Below, piece after piece: positions 4,004-35,497 of a stretch of 64,000 nt of DNA (position 1 is its first letter; each line of letters starts with the position of its first letter). This DNA comes from Candidatus Nomurabacteria bacterium (GTDB taxonomy: Bacteria; Patescibacteriota; Patescibacteriia; UBA1558; GWA2-36-10). Both the position numbers and the translations under genes were made by a program. Below the pieces are notes generated by a model. It was not told the origin of the DNA, made no database searches, and saw only the letters and a program-made list of their open reading frames with translations. The stretch is taken from NCBI GenBank assembly GCA_020632415.1, contig JACKFO010000002.1:450732-514731 (forward strand), given 5' to 3'.

Positions 4004-4031
4004 AAGACGCCGAATAATTATTCGGCGTCTT
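4004..4031. terminator. Bidirectional rho-independent terminator between the convergent miaA and gatB genes
   Basis: Perfect palindrome AAGACGCCGAATAATTATTCGGCGTCTT flanked by A/T runs. Confidence 0.7.
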
Positions 4032-4115: not shown

Positions 4116-5609
4116 TTAAATCTTACCCTTGATAATCTCCTCTACTTTTTGTGGATTAGCCTTGCCTTTACTTTCGGCCATCACCTTACCAACAAAAAAC
4201 TTGAGGAGAGCTTCTTTTCCTTGTTTTAATTCTGCTAGCTGTTTTGGATAAAGCATTAAAACTTTAATCACCAAATCTTCTAAGGTAGCCACGTCATCTA
4301 TTTGAGCTAAATCTAATTTTTCTGCAATATTCGATGGATCTCCGCCGCTCTCAAACATGGCTTTTAAAATAGTTTGACCAGCGGAACTATTAATTTTATT
4401 TTGATAAACCAAACTGATCAACTCCGCCATATTTTCAGAACTGATTTTTAAATCAGAAAATTTAAAATTTACTGGCAATAAACCAAACAATTCATTGCTA
4501 ATCCAATTAAAAGCTAATTTAGCAAATTTTGCTTTGTGTTTTTCCCAAATAACCTCTGCCTGATCATTTCCTCCTTCAGACTTGAAAAGCCAAGAATTCA
4601 GCTCTGACATGACTTGCTCCCAAAACTCTGACCAATCTTTACTTTGAACTAAAATTTTAGCGTCACTAGCAGAGAGAGAATACTCGGTAATTAAACGAGC
4701 AATTTTTGCCTGTGGTAATTCCGGCAAAGAATTTACTATTCCTTGCAAATCCTGATCAGAAATAATAAGCGGTGGTAAATCTGGCTCCGGAAAATAACGA
4801 TAATCTGAAAATCCTTCTTTAGTTCTTTGCCCTACGGTTTCTTGTTTATCTTCATCCCAACCACGCGTCTCTGTTAAATGTGGCGGTGTATTTTTCTCCC
4901 ACAAAGCAGTTTGTCTTCTGACTTCAAATTGCAAAGCCTTTTCCACGGCTTTAAAAGAATTAAGATTTTTAACTTCTGTTTTTGGATAAAGTTTATCTTC
5001 GCCCACGGGCCGCAAAGAAATATTAGCATCACATCGCAAATGTCCTTTTTCCATTTCCGCCTCAGAAACTCCTAGATAGCGAGCAAGTAAACGTAAATTT
5101 TGCAAAAAGATTTTTGTTTCTTCTGGCTGACGAAAATCTGGACGAGTGACAATTTCAGCAAGCGGTGTTCCGGCACGATTAAAATCAACTAAAGTTTGAC
5201 CATTGAGGTGAATATTTTTACCAGCATCTTCTTCCAAATGCAAACGTTCAATGCCAATTCTTTTTGGTTGATTATTTTCCTCGATGACCAGATGTCCATC
5301 AACAGCTATCGGAATGTCAAATTGCGAAATTTGATAACCTTTTGGTAAATCTGGATAAAAATAATTTTTACGATCAAATTTTGATTTCTGATTAATCTGA
5401 CAATTCAAAGCCAAGGCCATTTTGACGCCTAAATTTACCGCTTGCTCATTGATAGTCGGTAAAGTTCCTGGATGACCCAAACAAACCGGACAAATTGTGG
5501 TATTTGGTTTTTGATTTTCTCCATCATTAGAGCAAGCACAAAACATCTTACTTTTTGTTTTGAGCTGTAAGTGTATTTCTAAACCAATAATTGTTTCCAA
5601 TTTTTGCAT
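4116..5609 (-). CDS. gatB: Asp/Glu-tRNA amidotransferase subunit B
   Basis: N-terminus IGLEIHLQL...CPVCLGHPGTLP...FDRKNYFYPDLPKGYQISQ, characteristic of GatB, with a C-terminal GatB/YqeY domain. Confidence 0.9.
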   Translation of the reverse strand: MQKLETIIGLEIHLQLKTKSKMFCACSNDGENQKPNTTICPVCLGHPGTLPTINEQAVNLGVKMALALNCQINQKSKFDRKNYFYPDLPKGYQISQFDIPIAVDGHLVIEENNQPKRIGIERLHLEEDAGKNIHLNGQTLVDFNRAGTPLAEIVTRPDFRQPEETKIFLQNLRLLARYLGVSEAEMEKGHLRCDANISLRPVGEDKLYPKTEVKNLNSFKAVEKALQFEVRRQTALWEKNTPPHLTETRGWDEDKQETVGQRTKEGFSDYRYFPEPDLPPLIISDQDLQGIVNSLPELPQAKIARLITEYSLSASDAKILVQSKDWSEFWEQVMSELNSWLFKSEGGNDQAEVIWEKHKAKFAKLAFNWISNELFGLLPVNFKFSDLKISSENMAELISLVYQNKINSSAGQTILKAMFESGGDPSNIAEKLDLAQIDDVATLEDLVIKVLMLYPKQLAELKQGKEALLKFFVGKVMAESKGKANPQKVEEIIKGKI

Positions 5610-5610: not shown

Positions 5611-6237
5611 TTAAGAACTTAAAGTTAGACTGATTATTTTTTCAATGTTTTTAGCAACATCATCGATAGACTCCACGGCTGGAATAATATGCCAATTTCC
5701 ATTTTCTTTAACCTGCTTCAAATACCCTTCTCTCACTTTTTGATGGAATTCAGTTTTTTCTGCATCCAAACGATCTACTTTTTCAGATCTTATTCTTTCT
5801 GCTGCTTGCTCGGGCGTGATTTCAAAATAGATCACCGCGTCAGCTTCCAAATTATCTTTCGCCCAAGTATTCATTTTTTTAATCTCTTCCAAATCTAAAT
5901 TTCTAGCTGCACCCTGATAAGCAAAAGTGGATCCATCAAAACGATCACACAAGACTATTTTACCAAGCTCCAAAGCTGGCTTAACAACCTCTTCGATATG
6001 TTGAGCGCGCGCTGCCAAAAATAACAACAACTCTGTCCGTGGATGCATGGCAGTATTATTTTTATCCAAAATCAGATTACGAATTTTTTCGGCAATATCC
6101 GAACCCGTGCCCCCCGGCTCACGAGTCACTAATACCTCTAGGCCTCTATTTTCTAAAAAAATCTGCGCTTTTTCAATCTGCGTACTTTTTCCAGATTTTT
6201 CTCCGCCTTCAAAAACAATAAATTTTCCTGATTTCAT
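5611..6237 (-). CDS. tmk: Thymidylate kinase (start placed at the internal MKSGK rather than the ORF-track Met)
   Basis: FIVFEGGEKSGKST Walker A, TREPGGT motif, DRF/DR lid region. Confidence 0.85.
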   Translation of the reverse strand: MKSGKFIVFEGGEKSGKSTQIEKAQIFLENRGLEVLVTREPGGTGSDIAEKIRNLILDKNNTAMHPRTELLLFLAARAQHIEEVVKPALELGKIVLCDRFDGSTFAYQGAARNLDLEEIKKMNTWAKDNLEADAVIYFEITPEQAAERIRSEKVDRLDAEKTEFHQKVREGYLKQVKENGNWHIIPAVESIDDVAKNIEKIISLTLSS

Positions 6238-6265
6238 AGCTAAAATATAACACAATTAAAACCTT

Positions 6266-6844
6266 TTATCTATCTTTGTTAGCCTCTAAAAAACAATGCC
6301 GGCATAAGGCTTGATATTTATCTGCGCCACCAACTTCCACTGTGCCTTTGGCATCTGATAAACGATGTGTGCGAGAAGCAAGACCACCACAATTCATACA
6401 TATCGCATGTAATTTTTTCACTACCTCAGCTTCAGCTAAAAGTTCTGGTAAACCAGGAAATGGTACTGCTTCAAAGGTCTGATCTAGAGCTGCAATAATT
6501 ACCTTTTTGCCATCATTAGCCCAAATCTTTGCTAAACGCGTCAGTTCTGGCACATCAAAAAATTGCGCCTCATCAACGCCAATTATGTCCACGGAGTCAT
6601 AATCATTATCTTCTAAGTATTTAGCAATATCTGCTGAATCCTTTTTAACAATCGCCGCAATAGCATCACCATTATGACTAACTACCTTTTGATCATCATA
6701 GCGTTTATCAATCTCTGGTTTAAACAAAACCACTTTTTTCTTAGCAATCTCAAAGCGCCTTAAGGTTCTCATCAACTCTTCTGTTTTTCCAGAAAACATG
6801 CTACCGGTAATCAAAATAATAAAACCACTTTTAAAATTTTCCAT
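6266..6844 (-). CDS. tdk: Thymidine kinase
   Basis: ITGSMFSGKTEEL P-loop and a C-terminal CxxC...CxxC zinc ribbon. Confidence 0.85.
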   Translation of the reverse strand: MENFKSGFIILITGSMFSGKTEELMRTLRRFEIAKKKVVLFKPEIDKRYDDQKVVSHNGDAIAAIVKKDSADIAKYLEDNDYDSVDIIGVDEAQFFDVPELTRLAKIWANDGKKVIIAALDQTFEAVPFPGLPELLAEAEVVKKLHAICMNCGGLASRTHRLSDAKGTVEVGGADKYQALCRHCFLEANKDR

Positions 6845-6858
6845 GATTGTTTTTTAAA

Positions 6859-7281
6859 TTAATACCCCGAAGAATTAAAACCATTTTCTCCTCGATTTGT
6901 TTCTGATAATTCTTGAACTTCTTCAAAGTCTACTACTTCGATTTTTTGAATCAACATTTGTGCTACTCTATCTCCAATTTTAATCTGATAATCTTCTTTA
7001 CTCAAATTAACCATCACCACGCCAATCTCTCCGCGATAGTTACTGTCTATAATTCCAGCCAAAGTATGCAGACCGTGCTTTGCAGCCAGACCAGAACGAT
7101 CACGGATGTTGCCAACGTAATTCTCTGGGATTTCCAAAGCTAAACCAGTTGAAATAATTTTTGTTTCATTTGACTTAAGTAAAAAATTTTCACAAGATGA
7201 CAAATCAAAAGCTGCATCACCTTGACGCATCATTTGTGGTAAAACTGCCTGTTCTTTTAATTTTTTTACTTTTATTTTCAT
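6859..7281 (-). CDS. dut: dUTP diphosphatase
   Basis: Dut motifs RDRSGLAAKHGL and GIIDSNYRGEIGV. Confidence 0.85.
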   Translation of the reverse strand: MKIKVKKLKEQAVLPQMMRQGDAAFDLSSCENFLLKSNETKIISTGLALEIPENYVGNIRDRSGLAAKHGLHTLAGIIDSNYRGEIGVVMVNLSKEDYQIKIGDRVAQMLIQKIEVVDFEEVQELSETNRGENGFNSSGY

Positions 7282-7760
7282 TTTCTCATTAACTCTAAAA
7301 ATTTATAATTTAAATTTTCTTTTGTTTGATGTTTTTCTTCTCTAATTATTTTAAAATCTTGTTCATAATCTGGAAACCAAGTGTCTACTTGATATTCAGC
7401 ATCAATGATCGTTAAATAAAGTTTATCAACAATCTCAATCGCTTGTTTATAAATACTAGCTCCACCGATAAAAAATATCTCATCATCGTCCTGACTTTTT
7501 GCAAACTCCAAGGCTCGCTCTAAATCATTAAAAACTTCACAATCCTTGGCTTTAAAATTTAAATCTTTAGACAAAATAATATTCAAACGATTTGGCAACG
7601 CTTTGCCAATAGACAAAAATGTATTTTGTCCCATAATCACCGGATGTCCAGAAGTGATTTTTTTAAAATGAGCCAAGTCTTCAGGTAAATTTACTAAAAG
7701 TTTATTTTGATATCCCAAAGCTTTTTTGTTATCGATAACTGCAATTAAACTAATCATCAT
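7278..7760 (-). CDS. folA: Dihydrofolate reductase
   Basis: MISLIAVIDNKKALGYQNKLLVNLPEDLAHFKKITSGHPVIMGQNTF matches the DHFR N-terminal consensus. It overlaps dut and thyX by 4 nt. Confidence 0.85.
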   Translation of the reverse strand: MMISLIAVIDNKKALGYQNKLLVNLPEDLAHFKKITSGHPVIMGQNTFLSIGKALPNRLNIILSKDLNFKAKDCEVFNDLERALEFAKSQDDDEIFFIGGASIYKQAIEIVDKLYLTIIDAEYQVDTWFPDYEQDFKIIREEKHQTKENLNYKFLELMRK

Positions 7761-9109
7761 TTCATCACAATATCATGTTCACCACGTTTCACATCAAAAC
7801 GACCAGGGTCTTGATCTAAATGCAATTTTAAACCAAAGCTGCTAAATTCTTTTTCCAAAATTTTAGCCATTTCGATTGCTCGTTTCTGCAAAGTTGGATG
7901 AACAAAACGAGTGCCTCTCAATTCCACTAAATAAACCAAAGCTGCTAAATCCCCGGTCACTCTGTTTGGTAAATTATAACCCATTGCTAAATAATATTGA
8001 GCAAGTTCTTTGCTTAAATTTAAATTTTTGATTTTTTCTTCTTGACTTAAAACAAAGTCCTTAGCTTTTTGTCGTAAATTTTCCGGTAAAGAATTAAAAT
8101 AAAAATCCGCAAAACCATGTCGACTAGTCAAAAGCGGCATTCTTTGAATCACCGCTCGATGTCTTTGAATATCTCTAAAAGAACCAAAATCCAACATAAA
8201 GCCAAATTGCAAAGTTCCACATTCTGCAATAAATTTTGGTAACTCCGTTTTTTGCGGACGACTTTCCAAAACATTTTTATATGTTTTTAATAAGTCTTGG
8301 TTAATATTATTACACAACAAAGTGGTTTCTGGATAAGCATCGTGTTCAAAATAATAATCATTTTGCATCCAAGAATGATTATAATTTTCTGTAGTTTCAA
8401 ATAATTTGTGACTAAAAGAACTTGGATAGGCTTCTTCCAAAGCTTCTTGCATGACCGCAGCAATATTTTGCACCTCTGCTAAAGGATGGTGACGCAAAAG
8501 AGCTATTTTGTCAGCTGCTTGTCGCATATTGGTATGCCAAGCAATATTAGTCGAAGCACCGGCTGGTAAAAAACCACGCATAATATCAAAAGCTCTGGCT
8601 GCAATCGCTTTCTGATAAATTTTTTCTTCCTCGTCTTCGGCTTTAGGAAATTGCTGACGCAAATGAGTTTTTACTTCTTCCATTGAATCAAGATAAAAAC
8701 TACGCCAGCTTTCTAAAATCTCCTCTCCCTCTTTAGATTCCACTGGGTTTAAAAAAGTCTGTTGAGAGAAATCAACATAACGAGTTGACGCCTCTTGTCC
8801 ACTATACAAATGCCAATCTTGAATTGCTTTGGCTGCCAACATTGAGATTCCTTCGACAAATAAAGTGATTGTTCCGCAATCACCAATAGATTTGTGGCCA
8901 TAACCAACGTAAAAATTGGCCATAAAATTTTCAGCACCTTTTTTGGCTAAAATCTCCAAATGACTTTTAACTCCGCCAGTCGAACGAGAATGCAAAGCTT
9001 GAATCATTGCCTCTGACTCAGGATTGATTACAGCGCCAGTGTTTAAAACTAAAACCATTCCCCCGCTCTTCAAATTTTTTACCGTATGTTTTAAATCACC
9101 AATAGACAT
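7757..9109 (-). CDS. thyX: Flavin-dependent thymidylate synthase ThyX-like protein, apparently tandem-domain (about 450 aa). The first repeat has the RHR motif replaced by HLY; the second repeat has an intact QRHR...S motif.
   Basis: Repeat 1: GYGHKSIGD...QDWHLYSGQEASTRY parallels ThyX GHxSpFEH...QWxRHRxxSxxExSxRY. Repeat 2: FRDIQRHRAVIQRMPLLTSRHG plus downstream LP...LRGTR.H..Q.RA resembles the ThyX C-terminal region. It sits in a dTMP-synthesis operon. Confidence 0.55.
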   Translation of the reverse strand: MSIGDLKHTVKNLKSGGMVLVLNTGAVINPESEAMIQALHSRSTGGVKSHLEILAKKGAENFMANFYVGYGHKSIGDCGTITLFVEGISMLAAKAIQDWHLYSGQEASTRYVDFSQQTFLNPVESKEGEEILESWRSFYLDSMEEVKTHLRQQFPKAEDEEEKIYQKAIAARAFDIMRGFLPAGASTNIAWHTNMRQAADKIALLRHHPLAEVQNIAAVMQEALEEAYPSSFSHKLFETTENYNHSWMQNDYYFEHDAYPETTLLCNNINQDLLKTYKNVLESRPQKTELPKFIAECGTLQFGFMLDFGSFRDIQRHRAVIQRMPLLTSRHGFADFYFNSLPENLRQKAKDFVLSQEEKIKNLNLSKELAQYYLAMGYNLPNRVTGDLAALVYLVELRGTRFVHPTLQKRAIEMAKILEKEFSSFGLKLHLDQDPGRFDVKRGEHDIVMK

Positions 9110-9115
9110 AAAATT

Positions 9116-9658
9116 TTATTTTAATAATTGATCTAATTGTTTTTGAAACTCTTCCAAAGAACCATCGTTATTCACCACCACGTCCGCTACTTTCATTGCT
9201 GGCGGAATAGTAAGTTCTGTTTCTAAATTATGATCGGCTTGAAATTGTTCCCAAGTTTTGGTCTGATCATCAGGATTTTCACCACGTTCGAGTAAGCGTT
9301 GATAACGATTTTCCATTGTTGCTTCAATAGAGACTAATTTAAAATTAGGCAATTTTTTCAGATATTCAATATCCTCCATACGCCTAATTCCTTCTACTAC
9401 AACTAACTCCGCTTGAGAATTTTCAACATCTTTAGCCATTACTTCAGCCATCAGATCTTGCCCAAAAAATTCTCGCAAAACCGTAGAAATGCCAGACATG
9501 TTTTCACGAGTATGCTCTAAATACAAACGATCTAAAACATCTCTTAACATTGTTGAGAAACGAAAAGTTTCCGCTTGATATTTTTCTTTTAAATAACTAG
9601 CCGCCGTGCCCTTACCACAAGAGATGAGTCCGGTAAAACCTAAAATTTTTTTCTGCAT
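9116..9658 (-). CDS. P-loop nucleoside/nucleotide monophosphate kinase-like protein (CMP/dCMP-kinase-like Walker A)
   Basis: GLISCGKGTAA resembles the GxGKGT P-loop of cytidylate kinases. It is embedded between thyX and Nudix/dCMP deaminase genes. Confidence 0.4.
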   Translation of the reverse strand: MQKKILGFTGLISCGKGTAASYLKEKYQAETFRFSTMLRDVLDRLYLEHTRENMSGISTVLREFFGQDLMAEVMAKDVENSQAELVVVEGIRRMEDIEYLKKLPNFKLVSIEATMENRYQRLLERGENPDDQTKTWEQFQADHNLETELTIPPAMKVADVVVNNDGSLEEFQKQLDQLLK

Positions 9659-9661
9659 AAA

Positions 9662-10114
9662 TTACTTTACTAAATCAAGAGCCTTAATGGCCATTTGCTT
9701 AATACTATCTGGTAAATTAATTAAATTGTTTAACTCTTCTTTATTAAACCACCTAATATCACGACTTTCCAGATTCTTCGTAAAATTATCATCTTCGACT
9801 GTACCTAAATAAAACAAGCAATAATGATCGTGATCACCAACGTTATGGATATTAGCATGAAATGGAAGCGCTAATTTTTCTAGCTCATCCGGACCTTTTT
9901 CAATCTCCATGTCGCTGTATTGCAATAATTTTAAATCTAAGCCCGCCTCCTCTTTTACTTCTCGAATCACCGCCTGATCAGGAGATTCGTTTGGCTCAAT
10001 GTGCCCGCCTGGAAAAAGCCATTTATTTAATTTTGTATGTAACATCAAAAGAACTCTATTATCAAAAATTATACAAGCGCCAACTGTCAAATCTACTTTA
10101 TTTTTTTCTTCCAT
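9662..10114 (-). CDS. NUDIX hydrolase
   Basis: Canonical Nudix box GGHIEPNESPDQAVIREVKEEAGL (Gx5Ex7REUxEExGU). Confidence 0.85.
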   Translation of the reverse strand: MEEKNKVDLTVGACIIFDNRVLLMLHTKLNKWLFPGGHIEPNESPDQAVIREVKEEAGLDLKLLQYSDMEIEKGPDELEKLALPFHANIHNVGDHDHYCLFYLGTVEDDNFTKNLESRDIRWFNKEELNNLINLPDSIKQMAIKALDLVK

Positions 10115-10119
10115 TTATG

Positions 10120-10611
10120 TTATTGATTCTTATACTCCTCTACCTCTTCGTTAAAATATTCTAGTTCAATGCCAGCTTCTTTAAACATTTCCTCGCTTTC
10201 TCCTCCAGCATGGTATTTTTTCTGACAAAATACCTTTTCTATTCCACAATTAATAATCATCATTGCACAAGCACGACAAGGGGTCATTCGACAATACAAA
10301 GTAGCCCGATCCAAAGAAATCCCTAATCGCGCAGCCTGACAAATAGCATTTTGTTCAGCATGAACAGTCCTTAAACAATGTTGGCTTTGATGACCATCTT
10401 CGTGAGTGACTGTTTTCATCAAATGACCAACTTCGTCACAATGCGCAATACCACGTGGAGAACCAACGTAGCCAGTGACCAAAATTTGCTTATCTCTGGC
10501 TACTACACAACCCGAACGACCACGATCACAAGTAGCGCGCTTAGCCACAGTATCTGCTATTTCCATGAAATATTGATCCCAACTAGGACGAATGTATTTT
10601 TCTTCTACCAT
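10120..10611 (-). CDS. dCMP deaminase (ComEB-like cytidine/deoxycytidylate deaminase fold)
   Basis: Zinc-binding HAEQNAI and PCRAC motifs, about 160 aa. Confidence 0.8.
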   Translation of the reverse strand: MVEEKYIRPSWDQYFMEIADTVAKRATCDRGRSGCVVARDKQILVTGYVGSPRGIAHCDEVGHLMKTVTHEDGHQSQHCLRTVHAEQNAICQAARLGISLDRATLYCRMTPCRACAMMIINCGIEKVFCQKKYHAGGESEEMFKEAGIELEYFNEEVEEYKNQ

Positions 10612-10692
10612 AAGTTTAAAATTACTTCTCTTATTTTACCAATCTTTGGCCTCATCCGTAAACATTGACCACTACCAACAAAAATGTTCTAG

Positions 10693-11250
10693 CTAAACTT
10701 CTTTTAGTTTTTTCTCCCAAATTTTATAATCGGGTATGGTTTTAGCCACTAAAGCCCAAAATCTGACTGAATGATTCATTTCTCTTAAATGACACAATTC
10801 ATGAACTACCACGCAATCTGACAATTCCGCTGGTAATAAACAGAGGCGATAATTAAAATTAAGATTTTTTTGGCTAGAGCATGAGCCCCAACGGCTTTTT
10901 TGATTACGAATTGCCACTCGCTGATATTCAAAATTATAAAACTGATTAAAATATTTTAAACGTTCCTCTACTAATTTTCTGGTTTGTTGCTTGTATTTTT
11001 TTATTTCAGCTGCGCTGTGCTTTTCTTTAAAAATACTTTCTTTTTTCTCTAAAGCTTCGATATTTTTTTCTAGCCAATCTTTGCGACTCAACAAAAACTT
11101 TTTGATTAAAAAAAACGGATAACTTTTACCCGCTGTCACTTGCAAGCTACCATCCAAATCCAAACTCAAACGAATGTATTTAGCAAATTTTCGTCTTTTT
11201 AAAATAAACTGATATTCTTGTTGTCCGATTAGCAAAGTTTTAACTTCCAT
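10693..11250 (-). CDS. YgjP-like (DUF45/M48-related) metal-dependent hydrolase
   Basis: VVVHELCHLREMNHSVRFWALV matches the YgjP HELxHLxExNH signature. Confidence 0.65.
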   Translation of the reverse strand: MEVKTLLIGQQEYQFILKRRKFAKYIRLSLDLDGSLQVTAGKSYPFFLIKKFLLSRKDWLEKNIEALEKKESIFKEKHSAAEIKKYKQQTRKLVEERLKYFNQFYNFEYQRVAIRNQKSRWGSCSSQKNLNFNYRLCLLPAELSDCVVVHELCHLREMNHSVRFWALVAKTIPDYKIWEKKLKEV

Positions 11251-11255
11251 GAAAA

Positions 11256-11663
11256 TTAAAATTTCTGCAAATTATCTACTAAAACAGCTTGTGCGCTTTC
11301 GGTGTAGGCTCGCATCAAACCACCAACACCTAATTTTACACCGCCAAAATATCTAACTACCACAATTGCACAATCTATCGCTTCTTTTTTTTGTAATAAA
11401 AATAACAAAGGCTTTCCAGCAGAACCAGAAGGCTCTTTATCATCGGTATATTTTTCTCTTAACACACCGCTCTCCTGAAAACGATAAGCCCAAACAAAAT
11501 GTCGTGCATCTTTGTATTCTTTTTTTAAAAACGCTATTTTTTCTTTAAATTCTTCTTCTGATTTTATCACAAAACAAAAACCTAAAAATTTAGATTTTTT
11601 AATCTCTATTTTTGACTGCTTCTCGGTGATAATTTTCATGCCAAAATTATTGTTCGTCAACAA
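11256..11663 (-). CDS. yigZ: IMPACT/YigZ family protein (UPF0029 N-domain)
   Basis: TDDKEPSGSAGKPLL...VVVRYFGGVKLGVGGLMRAY signature. Confidence 0.75.
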   Translation of the reverse strand: MLTNNNFGMKIITEKQSKIEIKKSKFLGFCFVIKSEEEFKEKIAFLKKEYKDARHFVWAYRFQESGVLREKYTDDKEPSGSAGKPLLFLLQKKEAIDCAIVVVRYFGGVKLGVGGLMRAYTESAQAVLVDNLQKF

Positions 11664-11895
11664 CCTCTCTTTTTTTCTCGTTCTTTTTATCTAGACCATT
11701 CCAAAAAGAAAAACCCTTGCACCAGGCATTATGCTCATCACCACGGTTTAATAAATCCAAACCAAAAAGGATTAATAAAACCGGCAAAACATAACCCCAA
11801 AAACTACCGTTAATAATACCCATTTGTTGCAAAAGCCATAAGATGCCGATAATCACCAACATTAGGCCAACTGACATAAATTTCTTTTGTTTCAT
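11647..11895 (-). CDS. Small two-TM membrane protein, unknown function
   Basis: 82 aa with two hydrophobic helices. First gene of the minus-strand operon. Confidence 0.4.
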   Translation of the reverse strand: MKQKKFMSVGLMLVIIGILWLLQQMGIINGSFWGYVLPVLLILFGLDLLNRGDEHNAWCKGFSFWNGLDKKNEKKREVVDEQ

Positions 11896-23585: not shown

Positions 23586-24440
23586 TTAAAAACCTTTTTC
23601 TAAGTCTTGCTCTGAAAAAATTATGTAATTAAAAACATTGGAAGTCGGCGCATAAACCGGTAAACCAGCTGTAATGTGATAAATTGATTGTCGATAATGG
23701 CCACTAACTTTTACAGTTGCATAACCCGGTAAATAATCATCTCCATCTTTAGTTGGTGTAAATTTTAAGTAAGAAACATCAGAGTCTAAAGGACGGAAAG
23801 TAAAATAATAAAATTTATTATTATCAAGATCAGCGCTAACATGAGTATCGCAAGTATCCACGCCATTACTACAACCACAGGTAGTAAAAGTCTGTTTGGT
23901 ATTTGATTTTAAAGTACTACCAGACTTATACAAAGAAGTATAACTGATTTCTAAGCGATCTGAAGCATGTCCGCCTTGATAACAATCATCTATTGTCCAA
24001 TCTAATTTATAATCAGTGGGTAAATTTGTCGCTGCCGAAGGAATATCTGCTCCCGGTAAAGAAATTTCAGTTCTCACTGGGCTACTAGTAGCAATGTCAA
24101 AACTTTCAAAATAACTAGCCGTTGTTGTGGACAAAGTATTTATAAAACCTCTTTCATCGTCAATGACCACCGAATAACCATCATCAAGTTGATCAAAATA
24201 ATTAGTAAAATCTCCACTAATTTTAGAATATTTCAAATAATACAAAGCCTCTTCCATACCACTTTCCGTGACATAAAAAGCAACTATAGCATTATCAGAG
24301 TTGCGAGTCATTTTTACCTCACCAATAATCACCCTGCTTAAGGCAATCACCGAAACTGTCATTACCAGCAAAATCATTAAAGACATAAGCAAAACAACTC
24401 CTTGCTGATCTTTTAATTTTTCTTTTTCAAAAAAATACAT
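23586..24440 (-). CDS. PilX-like minor pilin or pilus-associated protein (PilX_N-type N-terminus)
   Basis: N-terminus QGVVLLMSLMILLVMTVSVIALSRVIIGEVKMTRNSDNAIVAFYVTESGMEEAL parallels the PilX N-domain consensus (membrane helix + ...R.S..EE.MAGN...). Confidence 0.5.
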   Translation of the reverse strand: MYFFEKEKLKDQQGVVLLMSLMILLVMTVSVIALSRVIIGEVKMTRNSDNAIVAFYVTESGMEEALYYLKYSKISGDFTNYFDQLDDGYSVVIDDERGFINTLSTTTASYFESFDIATSSPVRTEISLPGADIPSAATNLPTDYKLDWTIDDCYQGGHASDRLEISYTSLYKSGSTLKSNTKQTFTTCGCSNGVDTCDTHVSADLDNNKFYYFTFRPLDSDVSYLKFTPTKDGDDYLPGYATVKVSGHYRQSIYHITAGLPVYAPTSNVFNYIIFSEQDLEKGF

Positions 24441-24442
24441 TG

Positions 24443-25078
24443 TTATCTTTTATAAACTCGTGGTGAAACTGAAGTTTGCAAATTATAAGTCACTTGTTCA
24501 AAACTACGAGTGGCGTTCGTGCTTAGCTGCATTTCAATCGTTACTAATGGGTTTTGATTTCCACCGCCATCTTCTAGTGGATCAACTCCTGGTGCTGCTG
24601 GACTAACTAAAAAAAGGATGCTATCAATTACGCCTTGGTTTTGATTAATGTCAAAAATTACCCCACCCTTTGTCCAAACGCCAGCTTCTTTCACGAGATA
24701 ATTAATAACTTCTGGATTTCCACCGCCATCTGTTTCAACAGCAAAAGCCACGATAGTTCCGTCACTTTTTTCTAAAATTAAACACTGAGTAGTTTGAACA
24801 ACGGTAATCTCAGCATCACAATTAGAATAATTATAATAAACCTTATTACCCCTCACTTCCCTAGCCATACTTTCCAAAGCATACTGCGCGTCATTTAATA
24901 ACTTTTGCGCCACTTGCGTTCTGTCTTGGCTGTTTGAAAAAGCTAAATAAATACCACCGACCACTACCGACAACAATGAAAAAATAGCAACGGCGATCAA
25001 AACCTCCACCAAAGTCAAACCTGAGCTTTGATTTTTTAGTTTAAGTAATATTTTATTTTTAATCAATCTAGTTAACAT
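24443..25078 (-). CDS. Minor type IV pilin, PilW-like (class III signal, G|LTLVEVL)
   Basis: SGLTLVEVLIAVAIFSLL prepilin-type N-terminal helix with Glu at +5. Confidence 0.55.
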   Translation of the reverse strand: MLTRLIKNKILLKLKNQSSGLTLVEVLIAVAIFSLLSVVVGGIYLAFSNSQDRTQVAQKLLNDAQYALESMAREVRGNKVYYNYSNCDAEITVVQTTQCLILEKSDGTIVAFAVETDGGGNPEVINYLVKEAGVWTKGGVIFDINQNQGVIDSILFLVSPAAPGVDPLEDGGGNQNPLVTIEMQLSTNATRSFEQVTYNLQTSVSPRVYKR

Positions 25079-25691
25079 ACTCTCGCCAGTTATATAAATT
25101 TTCAATAACCTCTGTCAGGTGTCCTCTGCCTCTATCTTGCCAATAAACTTGAGAGCTAACTCTTAAACCAATCTTTTCTTCATAGTCTCCGCTACAAGTC
25201 AAAGAGCTAGAAATAAATGTCGCGCCTTGATCGTAAGAAGTAGCTACACTCTGATCAGCATCAAAACAAATTGCTTTCAAGACAATCATTCTGGCCAAAT
25301 CAAGTTCAATATCACCAGCAGCAGAATACACGGTTGGTTGACAAAGCTCATCGTCAAAACAATCCTCAATCGACATAGAACCAAAAAGTTGATTCAAGGA
25401 CGTATCATCATAATTAATAGTCGAGGTTCCATAACTCAAACCCTGGTCCCAAGTACAAGGTCCTGCGCCACAATCAATATTATTATCAATCTTTAGCCAA
25501 TTACTATCACGAATATTACGCACCAGCTCTACTCCTTCACGCGCTAAATTCGCCGCTAAAACACGATTGTAATTATCTCTAGCTGTATTTAAATTAGCCA
25601 AAGACAAAGTAAAAGCTCCCATAATTCCTATCGAAACCACAGCTAAAGCCAGAATCATCTCTAATAATGTAAATCCTTGATTATTTTTCAT
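25068..25691 (-). CDS. Minor type IV pilin, PilV-like
   Basis: MKNNQGFTLLEMILALAVVSIGIMGAF prepilin N-terminus. The helix+IGxxG pattern is typical of PilV. Confidence 0.6.
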   Translation of the reverse strand: MKNNQGFTLLEMILALAVVSIGIMGAFTLSLANLNTARDNYNRVLAANLAREGVELVRNIRDSNWLKIDNNIDCGAGPCTWDQGLSYGTSTINYDDTSLNQLFGSMSIEDCFDDELCQPTVYSAAGDIELDLARMIVLKAICFDADQSVATSYDQGATFISSSLTCSGDYEEKIGLRVSSQVYWQDRGRGHLTEVIENLYNWREYVN

Positions 25692-26339
25692 CTAATTATA
25701 TTGCACTCTAATATTCCCCCAAACATAGCCATCATCAGAAAGGTCTAAAATGTCTACCTGACTGGTCTGAAGATTGGCAGTATTTTTTAATATTATCTCT
25801 AAACTTTCATCAGCCGAATAACTAGTGGTAGCTGTATGTTCACTAGTAAAATTATAATAAAAAATATTTGTCCCTTCTCCTAAATCTTTTGGGTACACTG
25901 TAATATCATCATCGTAAAGATATTTTTTAATTTCTGCATCAGGAACAAAGTCCGGAGACGACTCACAATAGTTATTGCAATAAGCTGGACAGGTAGCAAT
26001 TAGCCCTTCGCAACCATAATCTTGATAACCAGCATGACCATTGTCAGCATAAATAGTATAAGAGCTCGGACTACTAGCATCATCAAAAAAAATACCATAA
26101 CCACCAATTGGAAAAGAATTGTTCTCATTGATTACTCGAGAGATTGTCAAATTCCTTAACTGCTTCAAATCAGCTGCGGTTTGTTCAGTTGCTTGATGTA
26201 ATTTTTCGGCATCGCTCAACCTGACTTGCACCACAAAAATACTAGTCATAATACCAATAATCGCAACAGCTACTAATAGCTCAATCAAAGTTGTGCCTAA
26301 ATGATTTCTTCTAAAGTCTACCATTTCCAAAAACTCCAA
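25692..26339 (-). CDS. Minor type IV pilin, FimT/FimU/GspH-like
   Basis: LGTTLIELLVAVAIIGIMTSIFVV prepilin-type N-terminus. First gene of the four-gene minor-pilin set. Confidence 0.5.
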   Translation of the reverse strand: MEFLEMVDFRRNHLGTTLIELLVAVAIIGIMTSIFVVQVRLSDAEKLHQATEQTAADLKQLRNLTISRVINENNSFPIGGYGIFFDDASSPSSYTIYADNGHAGYQDYGCEGLIATCPAYCNNYCESSPDFVPDAEIKKYLYDDDITVYPKDLGEGTNIFYYNFTSEHTATTSYSADESLEIILKNTANLQTSQVDILDLSDDGYVWGNIRVQYN

Positions 26340-27109
26340 TAAAAATTGATTAAAGTCTCTCCATAAAGCAAGACAATAAAAGTCGCTAAAGTCAAAAAAG
26401 TGCCAAAAGGCAATTTATCTCCCCAGTGTTTTTTCTTAAAAATTAACAAGCCAGAAGCAAACAGTCCGCCTAAAACATAAGCTAAAAATAAAGCAGTCAA
26501 CACCTGTGGCCAACCTAAAATCATGCCCATCAACAAACCAATGCGAACATCTCCTCCGCCAATCCATTTTCCATTTGACAAAACAAACTGTAACAAGAAA
26601 AATCCTCCACCAACTGCGGCAGCTAATAATAAATTTAACCAACTAAAACCAAAAAATAAATTTACCACAAAAGCAAAAGCAATGGCCGGTAAACTGACTT
26701 TATCTAAAATTAAATAATATTTTAAATCATAAACAAAAATTAACAACAAGAAAGCGAAGATAATCCACCAAAAAATTAAATGCGCAAAAATGCTTAGATT
26801 AGCCAGCTGAAAAATGGCAAGCTCATTGGTCTGAAAAATTTTCCAAAAGATCAAGACAAAGCCAATGGCTGTGGCTAGTTCTACCAAAAAATATTGCCAA
26901 GAAATTTTTGTCTTACAATAACGACATTTTCCTTTTAAAAAAACAAAACTAAACAACGGCACTAAATCTTGCGGAAAAAGACGATGTCCACAAAAAAGAC
27001 ATTTAGAAAATCCTTTAACAAAAGATTCAGCCCGATGAAGACGATAGATTACGACATTTAAAAAACTACCGACAAATAAGCCTAAAATAAAGACAAAAGC
27101 TACTAACAT
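26318..27109 (-). CDS. pilD: Prepilin leader peptidase / N-methyltransferase (A24 family)
   Basis: N-terminal tetracysteine motif (CLFCGH...CRYCKTKISWQY), eight TM segments, and GGGDVRIGLLMG containing the catalytic Asp. Confidence 0.85.
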   Translation of the reverse strand: MLVAFVFILGLFVGSFLNVVIYRLHRAESFVKGFSKCLFCGHRLFPQDLVPLFSFVFLKGKCRYCKTKISWQYFLVELATAIGFVLIFWKIFQTNELAIFQLANLSIFAHLIFWWIIFAFLLLIFVYDLKYYLILDKVSLPAIAFAFVVNLFFGFSWLNLLLAAAVGGGFFLLQFVLSNGKWIGGGDVRIGLLMGMILGWPQVLTALFLAYVLGGLFASGLLIFKKKHWGDKLPFGTFLTLATFIVLLYGETLINFYWSFWKW

Positions 27110-27157
27110 AGTAGCTTTATTATAACATTTTTAATAACAAAAGAAAAATAATCACAT

Positions 27158-27586
27158 CTAAACGCAACCGTCGATATTACAACTTATAATTTCCGAACCA
27201 TTAGTAGCCATTAAGGTCCAAGTATTTGTCTGAGGATTACTGGGATCACATTCTAAATAGCTAAAACCATTTTGCGCAATATTCGGCCAAGTGGTTACGC
27301 TACCATTACAAATAGCATGCCCAGACCATGGTATGTAATTATCATTACAATAACAAATACCTCCAGGACAAGCTCCAGTAAATCTAGCTGTCAACTCTTG
27401 ATCATCGTCATAGCACAAAAGAATCGCCGAAGATAAAGATGCTAAACTGTATTTAACAGCTGCTGTTTTAGCATTGTTTCTAGCTGAACTTAAATTAACT
27501 ACCGCCACTGACGATAAAATACCAATAATCGCAATTACGACTAACAACTCAACTAAAGTAAAACCTAAATTATTTATTTTTTTCAT
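27158..27586 (-). CDS. Type IV major pilin paralog 1
   Basis: MKKINNLG|FTLVELLVVIAIIGILSSVAVVNL class III signal, then a Cys-containing C-terminal globular region. Confidence 0.8.
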   Translation of the reverse strand: MKKINNLGFTLVELLVVIAIIGILSSVAVVNLSSARNNAKTAAVKYSLASLSSAILLCYDDDQELTARFTGACPGGICYCNDNYIPWSGHAICNGSVTTWPNIAQNGFSYLECDPSNPQTNTWTLMATNGSEIISCNIDGCV

Positions 27587-27598
27587 CGTAAATAATTA

Positions 27599-28039
27599 TT
27601 AAGACTGACAGCTCAGGGCTAAATTACTAAGCATGCGACATTCTCCTCCTCGCCAAGAATCCAGGCCCCACAATCCCCACTTATTTTTTAAATTAAACTT
27701 CAAAGTATAATGATTACCAGAACTCAAAAAACTGACTGGTCTTTTGAAATTTTCAACTTTCTGATAATAAGTCACCTCTCCTTTTTGGTTTAAGCCATTT
27801 TCTGTTAAAAAAGAAATAGTTTCTAAGTTTATTTCTTTGCTCTCTGGATAAATTTGAAATTTATCATAATATTTTTCCAAAGCTGTTGCAAAAACTTTGA
27901 CTTGTTCTACCAACTCTAAATCTTTAACTCGACTACGATCAAAAACTAATAAAGTGATTGTCGAAAAAACTAACAATAACAATATTGCCAATAAAATAAC
28001 TTTTACTTTTTTACTATAATTAAATAAGCTCATATTCAT
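27599..28039 (-). CDS. Bitopic membrane protein of unknown function, encoded between pilin paralogs
   Basis: N-terminal hydrophobic helix (ILLAILLLLVFSTITLLVF). No prepilin motif. Confidence 0.35.
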   Translation of the reverse strand: MNMSLFNYSKKVKVILLAILLLLVFSTITLLVFDRSRVKDLELVEQVKVFATALEKYYDKFQIYPESKEINLETISFLTENGLNQKGEVTYYQKVENFKRPVSFLSSGNHYTLKFNLKNKWGLWGLDSWRGGECRMLSNLALSCQS

Positions 28040-28053
28040 ATTATAGCAAAATT

Positions 28054-28083
28054 AAAAAACACCAGCTAGTGCTGGCGTTTTTA
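28054..28083 (-). terminator. Rho-independent terminator downstream of pilin paralog 2
   Basis: On the minus strand: ACGCCAGC-ACTA-GCTGGTGT followed by TTTTTT. Confidence 0.6.
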
Positions 28084-28094
28084 GGATACTCAAC

Positions 28095-28535
28095 TTAAGA
28101 AGTTGTACAACCAATTTGATCACAAATAATATTATTTGTTCCGTCAGTAGCCGCGTACTCCCAAACACCAGATATGTAATCAGAATTGCAATCTCCGGTA
28201 AAAGCCCAACCGCTAACTATATTTTCCAAAATTGGCCACCTAACATCTACACCACTTGCCTCGCAGACTAATTGACCACTAACCGGCGCTCCGCTTAATC
28301 CATCGCAATAAGTCGGACCAGATTCTTCAACGAGAAGATTATAATCTTCGTTAAAACACAATGAAACCAATGGCCTAAAAGAAGCCATGGTCTGTTCAAT
28401 TGCTGCTATTTTAGCCTTATCACGCGCAGAGTTTAAATTAACTACGGCAACTGATGATAAAATACCAATAATCGCAATAACGACCAGCAACTCAACTAAA
28501 GTAAAACCATTTTTTGTTAAATTTTTAATCTTCAT
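28095..28535 (-). CDS. Type IV major pilin paralog 2
   Basis: MKIKNLTKNG|FTLVELLVVIAIIGILSSVAVVNLNSAR. The N-terminus is near-identical to paralogs 1 and 3 at both protein and DNA level. Confidence 0.8.
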   Translation of the reverse strand: MKIKNLTKNGFTLVELLVVIAIIGILSSVAVVNLNSARDKAKIAAIEQTMASFRPLVSLCFNEDYNLLVEESGPTYCDGLSGAPVSGQLVCEASGVDVRWPILENIVSGWAFTGDCNSDYISGVWEYAATDGTNNIICDQIGCTTS

Positions 28536-28590
28536 TCTAAAATTTTAATTCTTACAAAATTATTATAACACAAAACTCCAAATTAGTTAA

Positions 28591-29151
28591 CTATTTTTTG
28601 GCAAATACAAAATTGTTACAAGCAAATTGAAAATAACTCACCTTTGCTTTGCTTAAATCAAAATGCGCAATTTTTAACATTTCCTTCAATTCTTTGTTCC
28701 AAAAATATCTTTGATGATCTTCTATTTCTCGTCGGTCAACAATTTTTAATCTGTAAGACAAAAATTCTAAAATAGGTTTTGCTACCCACGATGGCGTAGT
28801 CAACAACAAAATTCCCCCTGGCTTAAGCACTCTATAAGCTTCATTTAATAACTCTTGTGGTTTTAAGACGTGCTCTAAAACCGCCAAACAAATCACCACA
28901 TCAACACTATTATCCTCTAAATTTACACGCTGATTTAAATTTGCTTGTTGCAAAATTATTTTTTCTGAAATCTTTCTATTAGATACTCGGCCATCGAAGC
29001 CAATTGCTCGCTGATAATAATTAGCTAAATCTTGCAAAACTCCCGCTTCTTCACCACAACCAAAATCAACTAATAGCTCTACTTTTTTTGGTAAATTTTT
29101 TGTGATTCTAGAAATCCTCAATTTCCTTAAAATTGGCTCTAAAATATACAT
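28591..29151 (-). CDS. Class I SAM-dependent methyltransferase
   Basis: Motif I LVDFGCGEEAG and post-I/II motifs (VVICLAVLEHV, VLKPGGILLL). Confidence 0.7.
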   Translation of the reverse strand: MYILEPILRKLRISRITKNLPKKVELLVDFGCGEEAGVLQDLANYYQRAIGFDGRVSNRKISEKIILQQANLNQRVNLEDNSVDVVICLAVLEHVLKPQELLNEAYRVLKPGGILLLTTPSWVAKPILEFLSYRLKIVDRREIEDHQRYFWNKELKEMLKIAHFDLSKAKVSYFQFACNNFVFAKK

Positions 29152-29849
29152 TATGAAAATAAATTAAAACGTATTATGTGCCAAAAAGCAGCTAGACCAT
29201 CTTTCCAATTAATTTTCTTACCATCTTTATATGTTCTGCCATAATAAGAAATCCCAACCTCATAAATAACAATCTCTTTTTTGGCTATTCTCGCTGTAAT
29301 TTCTGGCTCAAAACCAAATCGGGTAGATTTTAACTTGGGGATAATATCAGCAATAACTTCTTTTTTAAAAAGCTTATAGCAAGTCTCCATATCTGTCAGA
29401 TTAATGTTGGTCAACATATTAGAAAACAAGGTTAAAATCCGATTTCCTAAAGAATGCCAAAAAAATAAAACTCGATGTGGACCTTTACCTAAAAAACGCG
29501 AACCATAAACAACGTCGGCCCCGTGCCTTAAAACTGGTTCCAAAAGAACTTGATAATCATTTGGATCGTATTCTAAATCAGCATCTTGGATTAACAAAAA
29601 ATCTCCGCTAGCCAGCTCCAATCCTTTTCTAACTGCTGCGCCTTTACCTTGATTTTTTTCTTGAATAAAAATCCTATATTTATCTTTTAAATTTTCTAAA
29701 ATTTCTCGAGTACCGTCAGTTGAGGCGTCGTCAATAATTAAAATTTCTTTTTCAATATCATCCAAAAAAACTGCCTCTATTTTTTCTAATAATAGTGGCA
29801 AAGTCTTAGCCTCATTAAAAACTGGAATAACAATTGATAATTTTTTCAT
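29151..29849 (-). CDS. Family 2 glycosyltransferase (dolichyl/polyprenyl-phosphate hexosyltransferase-like). Start placed at MKKLS; the longer track ORF runs into the upstream terminator.
   Basis: LSIVIPVFNE, IIDDASTDGT and the DADLEYDP DxD motif. Confidence 0.75.
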   Translation of the reverse strand: MKKLSIVIPVFNEAKTLPLLLEKIEAVFLDDIEKEILIIDDASTDGTREILENLKDKYRIFIQEKNQGKGAAVRKGLELASGDFLLIQDADLEYDPNDYQVLLEPVLRHGADVVYGSRFLGKGPHRVLFFWHSLGNRILTLFSNMLTNINLTDMETCYKLFKKEVIADIIPKLKSTRFGFEPEITARIAKKEIVIYEVGISYYGRTYKDGKKINWKDGLAAFWHIIRFNLFS

Positions 29850-29883
29850 CTCATAAATCATAGCAAAAAAGCAAATTTTAGAC

Positions 29884-29913
29884 AACAAAAAATCTCCCCA
29901 AATTGAGGAGATT
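29884..29913 (-). terminator. Rho-independent terminator downstream of pilin paralog 3
   Basis: On the minus strand: AAATCTCC-TCAATTTG-GGGAGATTT followed by TTTTTTG. Confidence 0.6.
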
Positions 29914-29934
29914 TTGTTTACATTATTTCTAAAA

Positions 29935-30336
29935 TTATGGACAAGCATTACCAGAAGCAGCGGTGCTACCAGAGCCTGTACTAGAAATACAATAATCATT
30001 ACCAGATTCTCCAGCATTATCAAGAGCAGCACTAACTGCCCAAGCATCAGCATTTCCGGTACAAGTGATATCAGCATTAACTAAACCACTTGTCGCCTGT
30101 GCTGAAGAAGTAGCACTAGAAACTGCTGAATCAGCGCAGAAACCAGTATAGTTGTTATGATCATTATAATAAATTTCACCAGCAGCAGCTAGTCCTGCCA
30201 AAGAGCCCTTTACGGCAGCAACCTTGGCCTTTGAACGAGCAGAGTTTAAATTAACTACGGCAACTGATGATAAAATACCAATAATAGCGATTACGACTAA
30301 CAACTCGACTAAAGTAAAACCTTTTTGATTTTTCAT
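29935..30336 (-). CDS. Type IV major pilin paralog 3 with a Ser/Thr/Ala/Gly-rich C-terminal region
   Basis: MKNQKG|FTLVELLVVIAIIGILSSVAVVNLNSAR. Strong SD GGAGGTG 6 nt upstream. The C-terminal half is low-complexity S/T/A/G-rich with a Cys pair. Confidence 0.8.
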   Translation of the reverse strand: MKNQKGFTLVELLVVIAIIGILSSVAVVNLNSARSKAKVAAVKGSLAGLAAAGEIYYNDHNNYTGFCADSAVSSATSSAQATSGLVNADITCTGNADAWAVSAALDNAGESGNDYCISSTGSGSTAASGNACP

Positions 30337-30372
30337 TGTTACACCTCCCCTCTTGGGTCAAACAATTAAAGT

Positions 30373-30406
30373 TTAAAGCTTGAGATCTCAAAGCTCTAAA
30401 GCTTTA
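30373..30406. promoter_or_regulatory. Imperfect palindrome/operator-like element upstream of pilin paralog 3, in the divergent intergenic region
   Basis: AAAGCTTGAGATCTCAAAGCTCTAAAGCTT: an inverted repeat centred on GAGATCTC, with three AAAGCT hexamers. Confidence 0.2.
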
Positions 30407-30473
30407 TTTAATTGTCTGGGATCTTAATTATTAAAGACAGAATTATTATAGCACTTTTTCTAAAAATTGACTA

Positions 30474-32741: not shown

Positions 32742-32745
32742 AACA

Positions 32746-32776: not shown

Positions 32777-32791
32777 GGATAAATATTTATT

Positions 32792-34006: not shown

Positions 34007-34035
34007 TTTTAAAGTTTAAAAATTATCTAAAAATT

Positions 34036-35493: not shown

Positions 35494-35497
35494 AATT

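Follow-up and report, generated by a model that had tools for sequence, protein, structure and literature searches.

The flavin-dependent thymidylate synthase ThyX, as described for the homotetrameric enzymes of Thermotoga maritima (TM0449), Mycobacterium tuberculosis (Rv2754c) and the virus PBCV-1 (A674R), builds its active site from three subunits (PMC3498832). In the M. tuberculosis enzyme, subunit A provides Arg199 (R174 in T. maritima) and the RHR motif, which binds the phosphates, ribityl and isoalloxazine of flavin adenine dinucleotide (FAD) as well as deoxyuridine monophosphate (dUMP); subunit C provides Ser105, Arg107 and Tyr108 (T. maritima S88, R90 and Y91), and subunit B Ser71 and Arg190 (PMC6514825). 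PBCV-1 ThyX shows the same arrangement, with S88 supplied by monomer B and R182 by monomer A (PMC3498832). A duplicated ThyX in the Chloroflexi was remarked upon in 2009 and called uncharacterised (Valas & Bourne, PMC3224940); the family described below, compared with it by description only, is very large, apparently dominant in the candidate phyla radiation (CPR) and present also in phages and mobile elements. The member under study is a 450-aa ThyX encoded in 64,000 nucleotides of a Candidatus Nomurabacteria bacterium (GenBank assembly GCA_020632415.1, contig JACKFO010000002.1, positions 450,732 to 514,731; hereafter, the window), where its gene lies directly against folA, the gene for dihydrofolate reductase (DHFR). 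This tandem ThyX belongs to a variant that had been noticed before but not characterised, its operon is one of ordinary salvage, and the points of some value are the clean complementary split of its active site and the series of thyA, thyX and folA arrangements seen in one slot of that operon.

The window protein matches, at 100% identity, what NCBI lists as 'FAD-dependent thymidylate synthase [Candidatus Nomurabacteria bacterium]', scores 82.6 bits against PF02511 (Thy1; gathering cutoff 24.8), with the best stretch at residues 44-229, and is about twice as long as the 220-aa T. maritima ThyX. A family profile was built from 60 diverse sequences of 33-77% identity, the set to which all conservation counts below refer. 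With it, the N-terminal half (N-half) matched M. tuberculosis ThyX (E 3e-6) and the C-terminal half (C-half) PBCV-1 ThyX (E 2e-4), and the N-half also aligned by hhalign to T. maritima ThyX (E 8e-5). In an AlphaFold2 model of the whole chain (predicted local distance difference test, pLDDT, 94.8; predicted template modelling score, pTM, 0.91), the significant fold matches in the PDB (E <= 0.001) were all ThyX (E 9e-6, TMt 0.63). The C-half modelled alone (pLDDT 90) returned 156 PDB matches by Foldseek at E<=1e-3, the top ones all ThyX, with E about 1e-7, TM scores of 0.52-0.60 and nearly whole chains covered; in sequence space this half is more elusive, as a C-half-only profile gave a marginal result against the PDB (E 0.46) and global hhalign against the single T. 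maritima sequence gave no usable alignment. Because direct similarity between the halves is marginal, it is the fold and the separate ThyX match of each half that show the duplication. As modelled, then, the 450-aa protein is a true tandem in which both halves take the fold of the canonical homotetrameric enzymes. The preliminary description of this DNA had read the doubled length as an internal duplication, hence a pseudo-dimeric ThyX, and had proposed alignment of the N-half in profile searches as a check; the reading is supported, and the N-half does align. An enzymatically active ThyX of about double length reportedly exists in Chlamydia trachomatis as well; if so, the other objection raised in that description, namely that long tandem ThyX proteins are already characterised as ordinary thymidylate synthases, would apply.

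The two halves have retained different parts of the active site, as judged with T. maritima ThyX (sequence identical to PDB 1KQ4/1O26) as the reference, globally aligned to the N-half. The N-half keeps H72 (57/60) for T. maritima H53, S74 (60/60) for T55 (M. tuberculosis S71), S108 (60/60), R110 (60/60) and Y111 (58/60) for S88, R90 and Y91, R178 (56/60) for R147 and R196 (49/60) for R165 (M. tuberculosis R190), and has Q105 (60/60) and E106 (57/60) at N85 and E86. Its RHR (R78-H79-R80) is lost, the columns holding D98 (49/60), a variable residue and P or H at position 100 (P in 35), and R174 falls in an alignment gap. The C-half, by contrast, keeps the RHR as R316 (60/60), H317 (54/60) and R318 (60/60), has R398 (60/60), aligned to PBCV-1 R182, for R174, and also retains R312 and D313, whereas H53 (P291), T55 (variable), S88 (L326), R90 (T328) and R165 (variable) are lost, N85, E86 and Y91 are variable, and R147 is replaced by Q371 (59/60). 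T. maritima H178 has a counterpart in both halves (H208, 54/60; H404, 60/60). The contiguous motif RHRxxS...S-x-R-Y is consequently found in neither domain, the N-half reading D-W-H...S108-T-R110-Y111 and the C-half R316-H317-R318...L326-L-T328. The preliminary description had rightly noted that the first repeat keeps the ThyX scaffold without the RHR, although it put HLY (H100-L101-Y102) in the place of the motif, which aligns two residues earlier, to D98-W99-H100; its 'intact QRHR...S motif' in the second repeat does not stand, since the RHR is there but S88 has become L326, R90 has become T328 and Y91 is variable. In the window, GQEASTRY occupies nucleotides 8777-8800, R316-H317-R318 8156-8164 and R398 7916-7918.

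Once both halves are combined, the residues that contact dUMP and FAD in solved ThyX form a full, near-invariant set; over the whole alignment of 60 sequences, 19 columns are invariant. The equivalents of H53, RHR, S88, R90, Y91, R147, R165 and R174 of the canonical enzyme are all in the one polypeptide, and the same reaction is expected; the difference is that here they are split between two domains of a 450-aa chain, so that only composite sites of C-half and N-half would be complete. The window protein carries the signature of the whole tandem clade, namely about 430-480 aa, two ThyX domains, an N-half 'LYsGQExSTRY' without RHR, and a C-half 'DFGSFRDLQRHR' plus 'ELRS..VHP'. The split also holds in ORF269 of phage BONAISHI and in the Asticcacaulis and Arenicella proteins (10-sequence alignment).

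Set against the published subunit roles, the residues retained by the C-half are exactly those of the A role, and those retained by the N-half are exactly those of the B and C roles. Because this split matches the subunit contributions in solved ThyX tetramers, we infer that the tandem protein forms a dimer with two composite sites, that is, a pseudo-tetramer with two FAD/dUMP sites in place of the canonical four. After an ancient internal duplication, the two domains would have become complementary half-enzymes: the C-domain would act in the A role, its RHR holding FAD and the dUMP phosphate next to the uracil-activating Arg (T. maritima R174), and the N-domain would supply Ser, Arg and Tyr (T. 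maritima S88, R90 and Y91) in the C role and Ser74 and Arg196 in the B role. In a 222 pseudo-tetramer of two tandem chains, the sites with the C-half in the A role would be complete, and the two with the N-half in that role would be without RHR and R174. The enzyme would then run the ordinary flavin-dependent reaction, turning methylene-tetrahydrofolate (CH2-THF) and NADPH into tetrahydrofolate (THF), and a flavin-dependent conversion of dUMP to deoxythymidine monophosphate (dTMP) is accordingly the activity that the residues predict.

Why, then, should folA stand beside a gene whose product is predicted to make no dihydrofolate (DHF)? Probably, the answer lies in the history of the slot. In the classical arrangement of thyA and folA, two genes known to function as a pair (cited in PMC11974145), folA likewise lies directly downstream of the synthase gene, and the closest homologs of the window DHFR, all of them CPR DHFRs, are usually encoded downstream of thyA. 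At 57 loci of DHFR relatives with at least 1 kb of upstream sequence, the upstream neighbour is thyA in 44; a tandem thyX takes that place in 4, and the other 9 have neither gene there. Seen from the other side, within 6 kb of tandem thyX at 80 species-level loci (tblastn, E 1e-5; all counts are lower bounds), DHFR occurs in 3, as against 42 for thymidylate kinase (TMK), 33 for the kinase encoded upstream of thyX, 31 for deoxycytidine monophosphate (dCMP) deaminase, 27 for GatB, 24 for dUTPase and 4 for thymidine kinase (TK). A thyX-folA pairing as a conserved functional module was rejected on these two frequencies (3/80 and 4/57).

The same operon in sister genomes makes the point directly. 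Locus L096 has the gene order of the window, with identities to it of 72% for LiaF, 73% for IMPACT, 78% for the kinase, 75% for DHFR, 76% for TK, 75% for TMK and 79% for GatB, and carries a 293-aa ThyA in place of the 450-aa ThyX; L125 (dCMP deaminase 84%, Nudix 73%, kinase 75%, DHFR 85%) likewise has ThyA. Across L096, L125 and L095, flanking genes are 58-85% identical to those of the window, and the slot before folA holds a classical ThyA of 293-298 aa. L092 runs IMPACT-YgjP-...-dCMP deaminase-kinase-ThyA-DHFR-...-dUTPase-TMK-GatB, and L093 and L094 are similar (ThyA PF00303, 298 aa). L097-L100 are as closely related to the window but have a tandem ThyX (74-75% identical). In L001-L003, which hold the closest ThyX relatives (71-77% identity), the slot of folA is taken by an HD-domain gene. 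A single slot of a conserved operon thus alternates between thyA-folA, thyX-folA and thyX-HD. As read from these gene orders, this is an in-situ non-orthologous displacement between thyA and thyX: in the window, thyX would have ousted thyA or been inserted, with folA kept. The adjacency of thyX and folA would then exist because the slot has a thyA-folA ancestry. Moreover, a slot shared with classical ThyA argues for one and the same function in ThyA and the tandem ThyX, and this evidence, though indirect, is the best available. The HD-domain proteins (181-184 aa; L001:9357-9911, L002:7504-8058 and L003:9357-9902), which sit exactly in folA's slot, may be dNTP or dNMP (deoxynucleoside tri- or monophosphate) phosphohydrolases.

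What folA does after such a swap can be approached from the literature. Canonical ThyX yields THF (PMC4913046), and because its partner would yield no DHF, folA is probably kept for folate reduction and salvage rather than for recycling: FolA would reduce salvaged folate or DHF to the THF needed by ThyX and by other one-carbon enzymes. DHFR is required for the salvage of intact folate regardless of ThyA (PMC1971073). Among 4,581 CPR genomes, folA is present in 54.8%, glyA in 81.3% and folD in 79.7%, and three CPR folA genes complemented an E. coli ΔfolA strain (PMC11974145); no glyA or folD was found among the Pfam-scanned open reading frames (ORFs) of the window. Chlamydia, too, has ThyX and FolA and lacks ThyA (PMC4913046 Table 1; PMC1971073 Table 2), so that the same combination occurs in another reduced, host-dependent bacterium, for which adjacency or co-translation of the two genes is not described. 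Chlamydial ThyX sequences were too divergent for inclusion in ThyX phylogenies (PMC6171736).

The tandem family is large. A word-index search gave more than 4,000 homologs. Clustered at 50% identity, the family comprises 2,041 clusters with E <= 1e-3, of which 498 reach E <= 1e-30, and its proteins are mostly 430-480 aa long. At least 588 species-representative genomes carry it, the best 80 all being CPR by title or context, with 60-77% identity across CPR orders, and the CPR/Patescibacteria seem to have their ThyX mainly in this tandem form. In one locus (L088:5436-7313), a 625-aa protein (P0385) joins dCMP deaminase in frame to a tandem ThyX, a fusion that argues for dUMP as the substrate; the genes that follow it encode a UPF0200-like kinase, a 275-aa weak Thy1-like ORF, TMK, TK and GatB. 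Candidatus Moranbacteria (L005) has, directly downstream of its tandem ThyX (7001-8350), a second, highly divergent Thy1-family protein of 451 aa (8494-9849) with an equal split, its N-half showing 'DQRSGRY' without RHR and its C-half 'QRHR', so that two tandem-ThyX paralogs stand in one operon. In cultured Proteobacteria, the tandem ThyX of Asticcacaulis benevestitus (L086:4681-7905) lies beside a phage integrase and a dCTP-deaminase-like gene and that of Arenicella sp. (L087:1-7311) beside MobA/TraG relaxase and coupling genes, a radical-SAM gene and an AAA_28 gene; both apparently sit on mobile elements. A megaplasmid of Euzebya pacifica has a 516-aa form near dcd. Vibrio phages of about 290 kb encode a tandem ThyX with 31% identity over 93% of the query, and the viral model A0A6B7EUB9 (BFVD) and the 491-aa protein of Microcystis phage LMM01 match the fold with TMq 0.90 and 0.72. 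Proteins of this type, of 460-490 aa, are encoded by jumbo Vibrio phages (BONAISHI ORF269, L089:5902-7344; vB_VmeM-Yong) and by cyanophage LMM01, and the phage genes around them are all hypothetical.

Taken together, we consider it likely that the operon is an ordinary salvage operon, that its tandem ThyX has complementary halves and carries out normal dTMP synthesis, and that folA was kept through a swap of thyA and thyX in the slot. Dimerising as proposed, the 450-aa ThyX would methylate dUMP made by dCMP deaminase and dUTPase, which are probably fed by the Nudix enzyme, TK would salvage thymidine, and TMK would make the diphosphate (dTDP). Several points weigh against this. The protein reaches 44.2 bits against the TIGR02170 equivalog cutoff of 87.9, the match covering the N-half (69-232) only. 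BLASTP of the N-half against the C-half found no significant similarity (E 0.15), and hhalign of the two half-family profiles found a weak 51-column match only (E 0.017, probability 2.7%). The mapping of subunit roles draws on published accounts of the M. tuberculosis and PBCV-1 enzymes rather than on a multimer model of the tandem protein, and the subunit contributing the T. maritima R147 equivalent is itself presumed. A second thymidylate synthase elsewhere in the genome is possible, the window covering 64 kb of 842 kb; within it, no Pfam-scanned ORF matched Thymidylat_synt (PF00303), with GatB, TMK and the last ORF (62648-63964) outside the scan. A non-housekeeping role is conceivable for the tandem ThyX of mobile elements and jumbo phages. 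Finally, a full-text literature search of incomplete coverage found no biochemical or structural work on any tandem ThyX. The same search, with the same coverage, found no description of the complementary residue split.

Could the tandem enzyme instead have an altered chemistry or substrate, as a hydroxymethylase, a dCMP or UMP methylase or some other base-modifying enzyme, with the adjacent DHFR serving a different folate cycle? The preliminary description had taken the adjacency of folA as a hint in this direction. A precedent exists in PolB, a paralog of ThyX by which UMP is methylated at C5 in the making of polyoxin (PMC7226160), and the sub-threshold TIGR02170 score, the lack of a contiguous motif in either domain and the relatives in jumbo Vibrio phages, a cyanophage and proteobacterial islands beside dCTP-deaminase-like genes, where nucleotide modification is common, would all fit. 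PolB, however, though of the ThyX family and likewise a user of flavin and folate, is a single-domain protein of a secondary-metabolite cluster, whereas the present gene stands in a dUMP-to-dTDP operon, between the dUMP-producing enzymes and TMK, and replaces ThyA positionally, in its exact slot in sister genomes. With the catalytic and the dUMP- and FAD-contacting residues all conserved in trans across the halves, dUMP implied as the substrate by the deaminase fusion, and the rare DHFR adjacency (3/80) accounted for by the ancestry of the slot, a changed chemistry is very unlikely, and the hint drawn from folA loses its force. A neighbouring idea, that the enzyme uses CH2-THF as reductant in the manner of ThyA and releases DHF, so that a co-translated DHFR is mechanistically required, draws on the 4-nt ATGA overlaps that couple thyX, folA and dut and on the functional pairing of thyA with folA. 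It would have to live with an FAD-binding RHR motif kept in the C-half (R316 and R318 in 60/60, H317 in 54/60), with 77 of the 80 tandem-ThyX loci showing no DHFR nearby, with an HD gene in the slot of close relatives, with about 45% of CPR genomes lacking folA (PMC11974145) in spite of a widespread tandem ThyX, and with THF as the known product of canonical ThyX (PMC4913046); we regard it as extremely improbable.

Two further explanations concern the protein itself. If one half alone were catalytic and the other a degenerate pseudo-domain, for scaffolding or regulation, with no residue in the active site, then the loss of part of the motif from each half and the very low similarity between the halves would fit. 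Neither half, however, has the full set, the C-half being without S88, R90, Y91 and R147 and the N-half without RHR and R174; S108, R110, R316, R318 and R398 are invariant (60/60), which is unexpected for a mere scaffold, and the retained residues match the trans-subunit contributions in solved structures. A catalytic role for one half only is hence highly improbable. As for thyX being a decaying remnant in an organism that depends on thymidine kinase for its dTMP, the operon does encode TK and CPR bacteria are salvage-dependent symbionts (PMC11974145), yet the ORF is intact, identity across CPR orders stays at 60-77% with the 19 invariant columns, and TK lies within 6 kb at only 4 of the 80 tandem-ThyX loci, so that decay has next to no likelihood. 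Complementary halves within a functioning thymidylate synthase therefore remain the reading that we prefer.

An extension of the same reading, unlikely though less so, is that the tandem ThyX is obligately asymmetric and that its two vestigial sites, those with the N-half in the A role, have become free for a new role, for example as NADPH or regulatory nucleotide sites, and that phage and mobile-element members might have changed their product. With the expected biochemistry unchanged, the practical impact is modest. ThyX is nevertheless an antibacterial target whose multi-subunit active site is hard to dissect, and a natural covalent heterodimer that separates A-role from B/C-role residues would suit the study of site assembly and half-site behaviour. 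The variant is also, it seems, the chief ThyX of the CPR/Patescibacteria, a very large radiation of which most members are uncultured. In addition, the alternation of thyA-folA, thyX-folA and thyX-HD in one conserved operon frame gives an unusually clear picture of non-orthologous displacement and of the loss of dependence on DHFR that followed it.

The operon itself is a block of twelve co-directional minus-strand ORFs, running from 11895 down to 4116 in a window of about 0.35 guanine-plus-cytosine (GC) content; the features are collected in the table.

Table. Features of the thyX-folA operon and its flanks (positions in the window)
Feature	Positions	Strand	Length	Evidence or remark
Small membrane protein, LiaI/LiaF-like TM domain	11647..11895	-	82 aa	First gene; PF18917/PF22570 E 8e-9
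IMPACT/YigZ N-domain protein	11256..11663	-	135 aa from TTG	PF01205 E 5e-36; TIGR00257 E 7e-41, below cutoff
YgjP-like metal-dependent hydrolase	10693..11250	-	185 aa	PF01863 E 4e-42
Promoter-like hexamers TTTACG-18-TAAAAT, TG-extended	10633..10662	-		In the sole sizeable intergenic gap (81 nt); scan not above chance
dCMP deaminase (dCMP to dUMP)	10120..10611	-	163 aa	PF00383 E 6e-24; ComEB-type TIGR02571 E 7e-34
Nudix hydrolase, candidate (d)NTP pyrophosphatase	9662..10114	-	150 aa	PF00293 E 1e-18
UPF0200/AdkA-like P-loop kinase	9116..9658	-	180 aa	AAA_17/AAA_18/DNMK; PDB 3lw7, 3h0k E 1e-14
Tandem-domain ThyX, predicted flavin-dependent thymidylate synthase	7757..9109	-	450 aa	PF02511 in two stretches
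N-terminal ThyX domain	8378..9109	-	residues 1-244	hhalign to T. maritima ThyX; profile to M. tuberculosis ThyX
C-terminal ThyX domain	7757..8377	-	residues 245-450	AlphaFold2 of the half alone with Foldseek; PBCV-1 alignment
DHFR FolA	7278..7760	-	160 aa	PF00186 E 3e-52, 176.9 bits, residues 2-158 on profile 1-158/159
dUTPase (dUTP to dUMP)	6859..7281	-	140 aa	TIGR00576 155 bits, above cutoff; 4-nt overlap with folA
Thymidine kinase	6266..6844	-	192 aa	NF003296 212 bits, above cutoff; PF00265 E 6e-56
dTMP kinase	5611..6255	-	214 aa from TTG	TIGR00041 179.5 bits, above cutoff
GatB	4116..5609	-	497 aa	Last gene; named from syntenic orthologs with GatB_N/GatB_Yqey, 72-79% tblastn identity
12-bp GC-rich palindromic hairpin	4004..4031	.		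Between convergent gatB and miaA; scan not above chance

The preliminary description had placed a twelve-gene operon of mostly 4-nt-overlapping genes at 5611-11895. The ORF coordinates and the co-directional block of twelve agree with our list, with the correction that this interval holds eleven genes, gatB lying outside it (4116-5609). The overlaps are another matter: a 4-nt overlap (ATGA) is found at two of the 11 junctions only, ThyX/DHFR, where the folA start overlaps the ThyX stop, and DHFR/dUTPase, the rest being eight gaps of 1-14 nt, one gap of 81 nt between YgjP and dCMP deaminase, and a 17-nt overlap between the LiaF-like gene and IMPACT. This last overlap depends on the doubtful TTG start of IMPACT and disappears if translation begins at the in-frame ATG 8 codons downstream ('MKIITEK'), the listed TTG being probably too far upstream. 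The same applies to the TTG of TMK, which likely starts at an ATG 6 codons downstream ('MKSGKF'). As to whether the block is a single unit, its junctions are no wider than 14 nt except for the 81-nt gap with its promoter-like site, the gene order is kept in many CPR loci, and scans for signals gave nothing above chance: 33 promoter-consensus sites against 26.8±4.5 expected from shuffles, and 7 terminator-like sites against 5.9±2.2. The site in the 81-nt gap is a faint hint of a possible internal start for a nucleotide sub-operon, and the hairpin at 4004-4031 likely marks the 3' end of the transcription unit. The gene families support reading the block as a housekeeping operon for thymidylate and dNTP interconversion, leading from dCMP, dUTP or thymidine to dTDP, which agrees with the earlier claim that every one of these steps is encoded.

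The family names assigned earlier are upheld by Pfam and NCBIfam for the scanned genes, with the exception of the kinase, which had been called CMP-kinase-like and is not specifically so, resembling UPF0200/AdkA proteins instead. This kinase is conserved directly upstream of the thymidylate synthase slot, including the ThyA slot of L092-L094, L096 and L125. Both it (E 1e-7, profile 98-206) and the dCMP deaminase (E 5e-16, profile 332-384) have sub-threshold matches to NF041025, 'anti-phage dCTP deaminase', and the housekeeping pair resembles a split form of that fused defence protein. The Nudix protein resembles the MutT and pyrimidine dNTP diphosphatase models weakly, reaching the cutoff of none, and MazG or HD genes are present in the corresponding operons of relatives. 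FolA has an LPEDL motif whose Asp we take to be the equivalent of E. coli D27. At the ends of the block, the LiaF-like gene holds an equal position in relatives L001, L003, L093 and L096, and gatB, separated from tmk by a 1-nt gap, follows it in most relatives.

Elsewhere in the window, all on the minus strand, four consecutive large ORFs (655, 658, 525 and 534 aa) at 40600-47967, with a GC content of 0.40 as against about 0.35, have no Pfam match at E<=1e-6. Type IV secretion/conjugation-like genes lie at 59637-62646 among unannotated neighbours and include a PrgI-family protein besides a 622-aa P-loop ATPase of the TraG/VirB4 type. A type IV pilus cluster at 23586-40479 encodes PilX_N, several N_methyl pilins, a prepilin peptidase A24, T2SSF, two T2SSE ATPases and PilM, and a response regulator is embedded in it.

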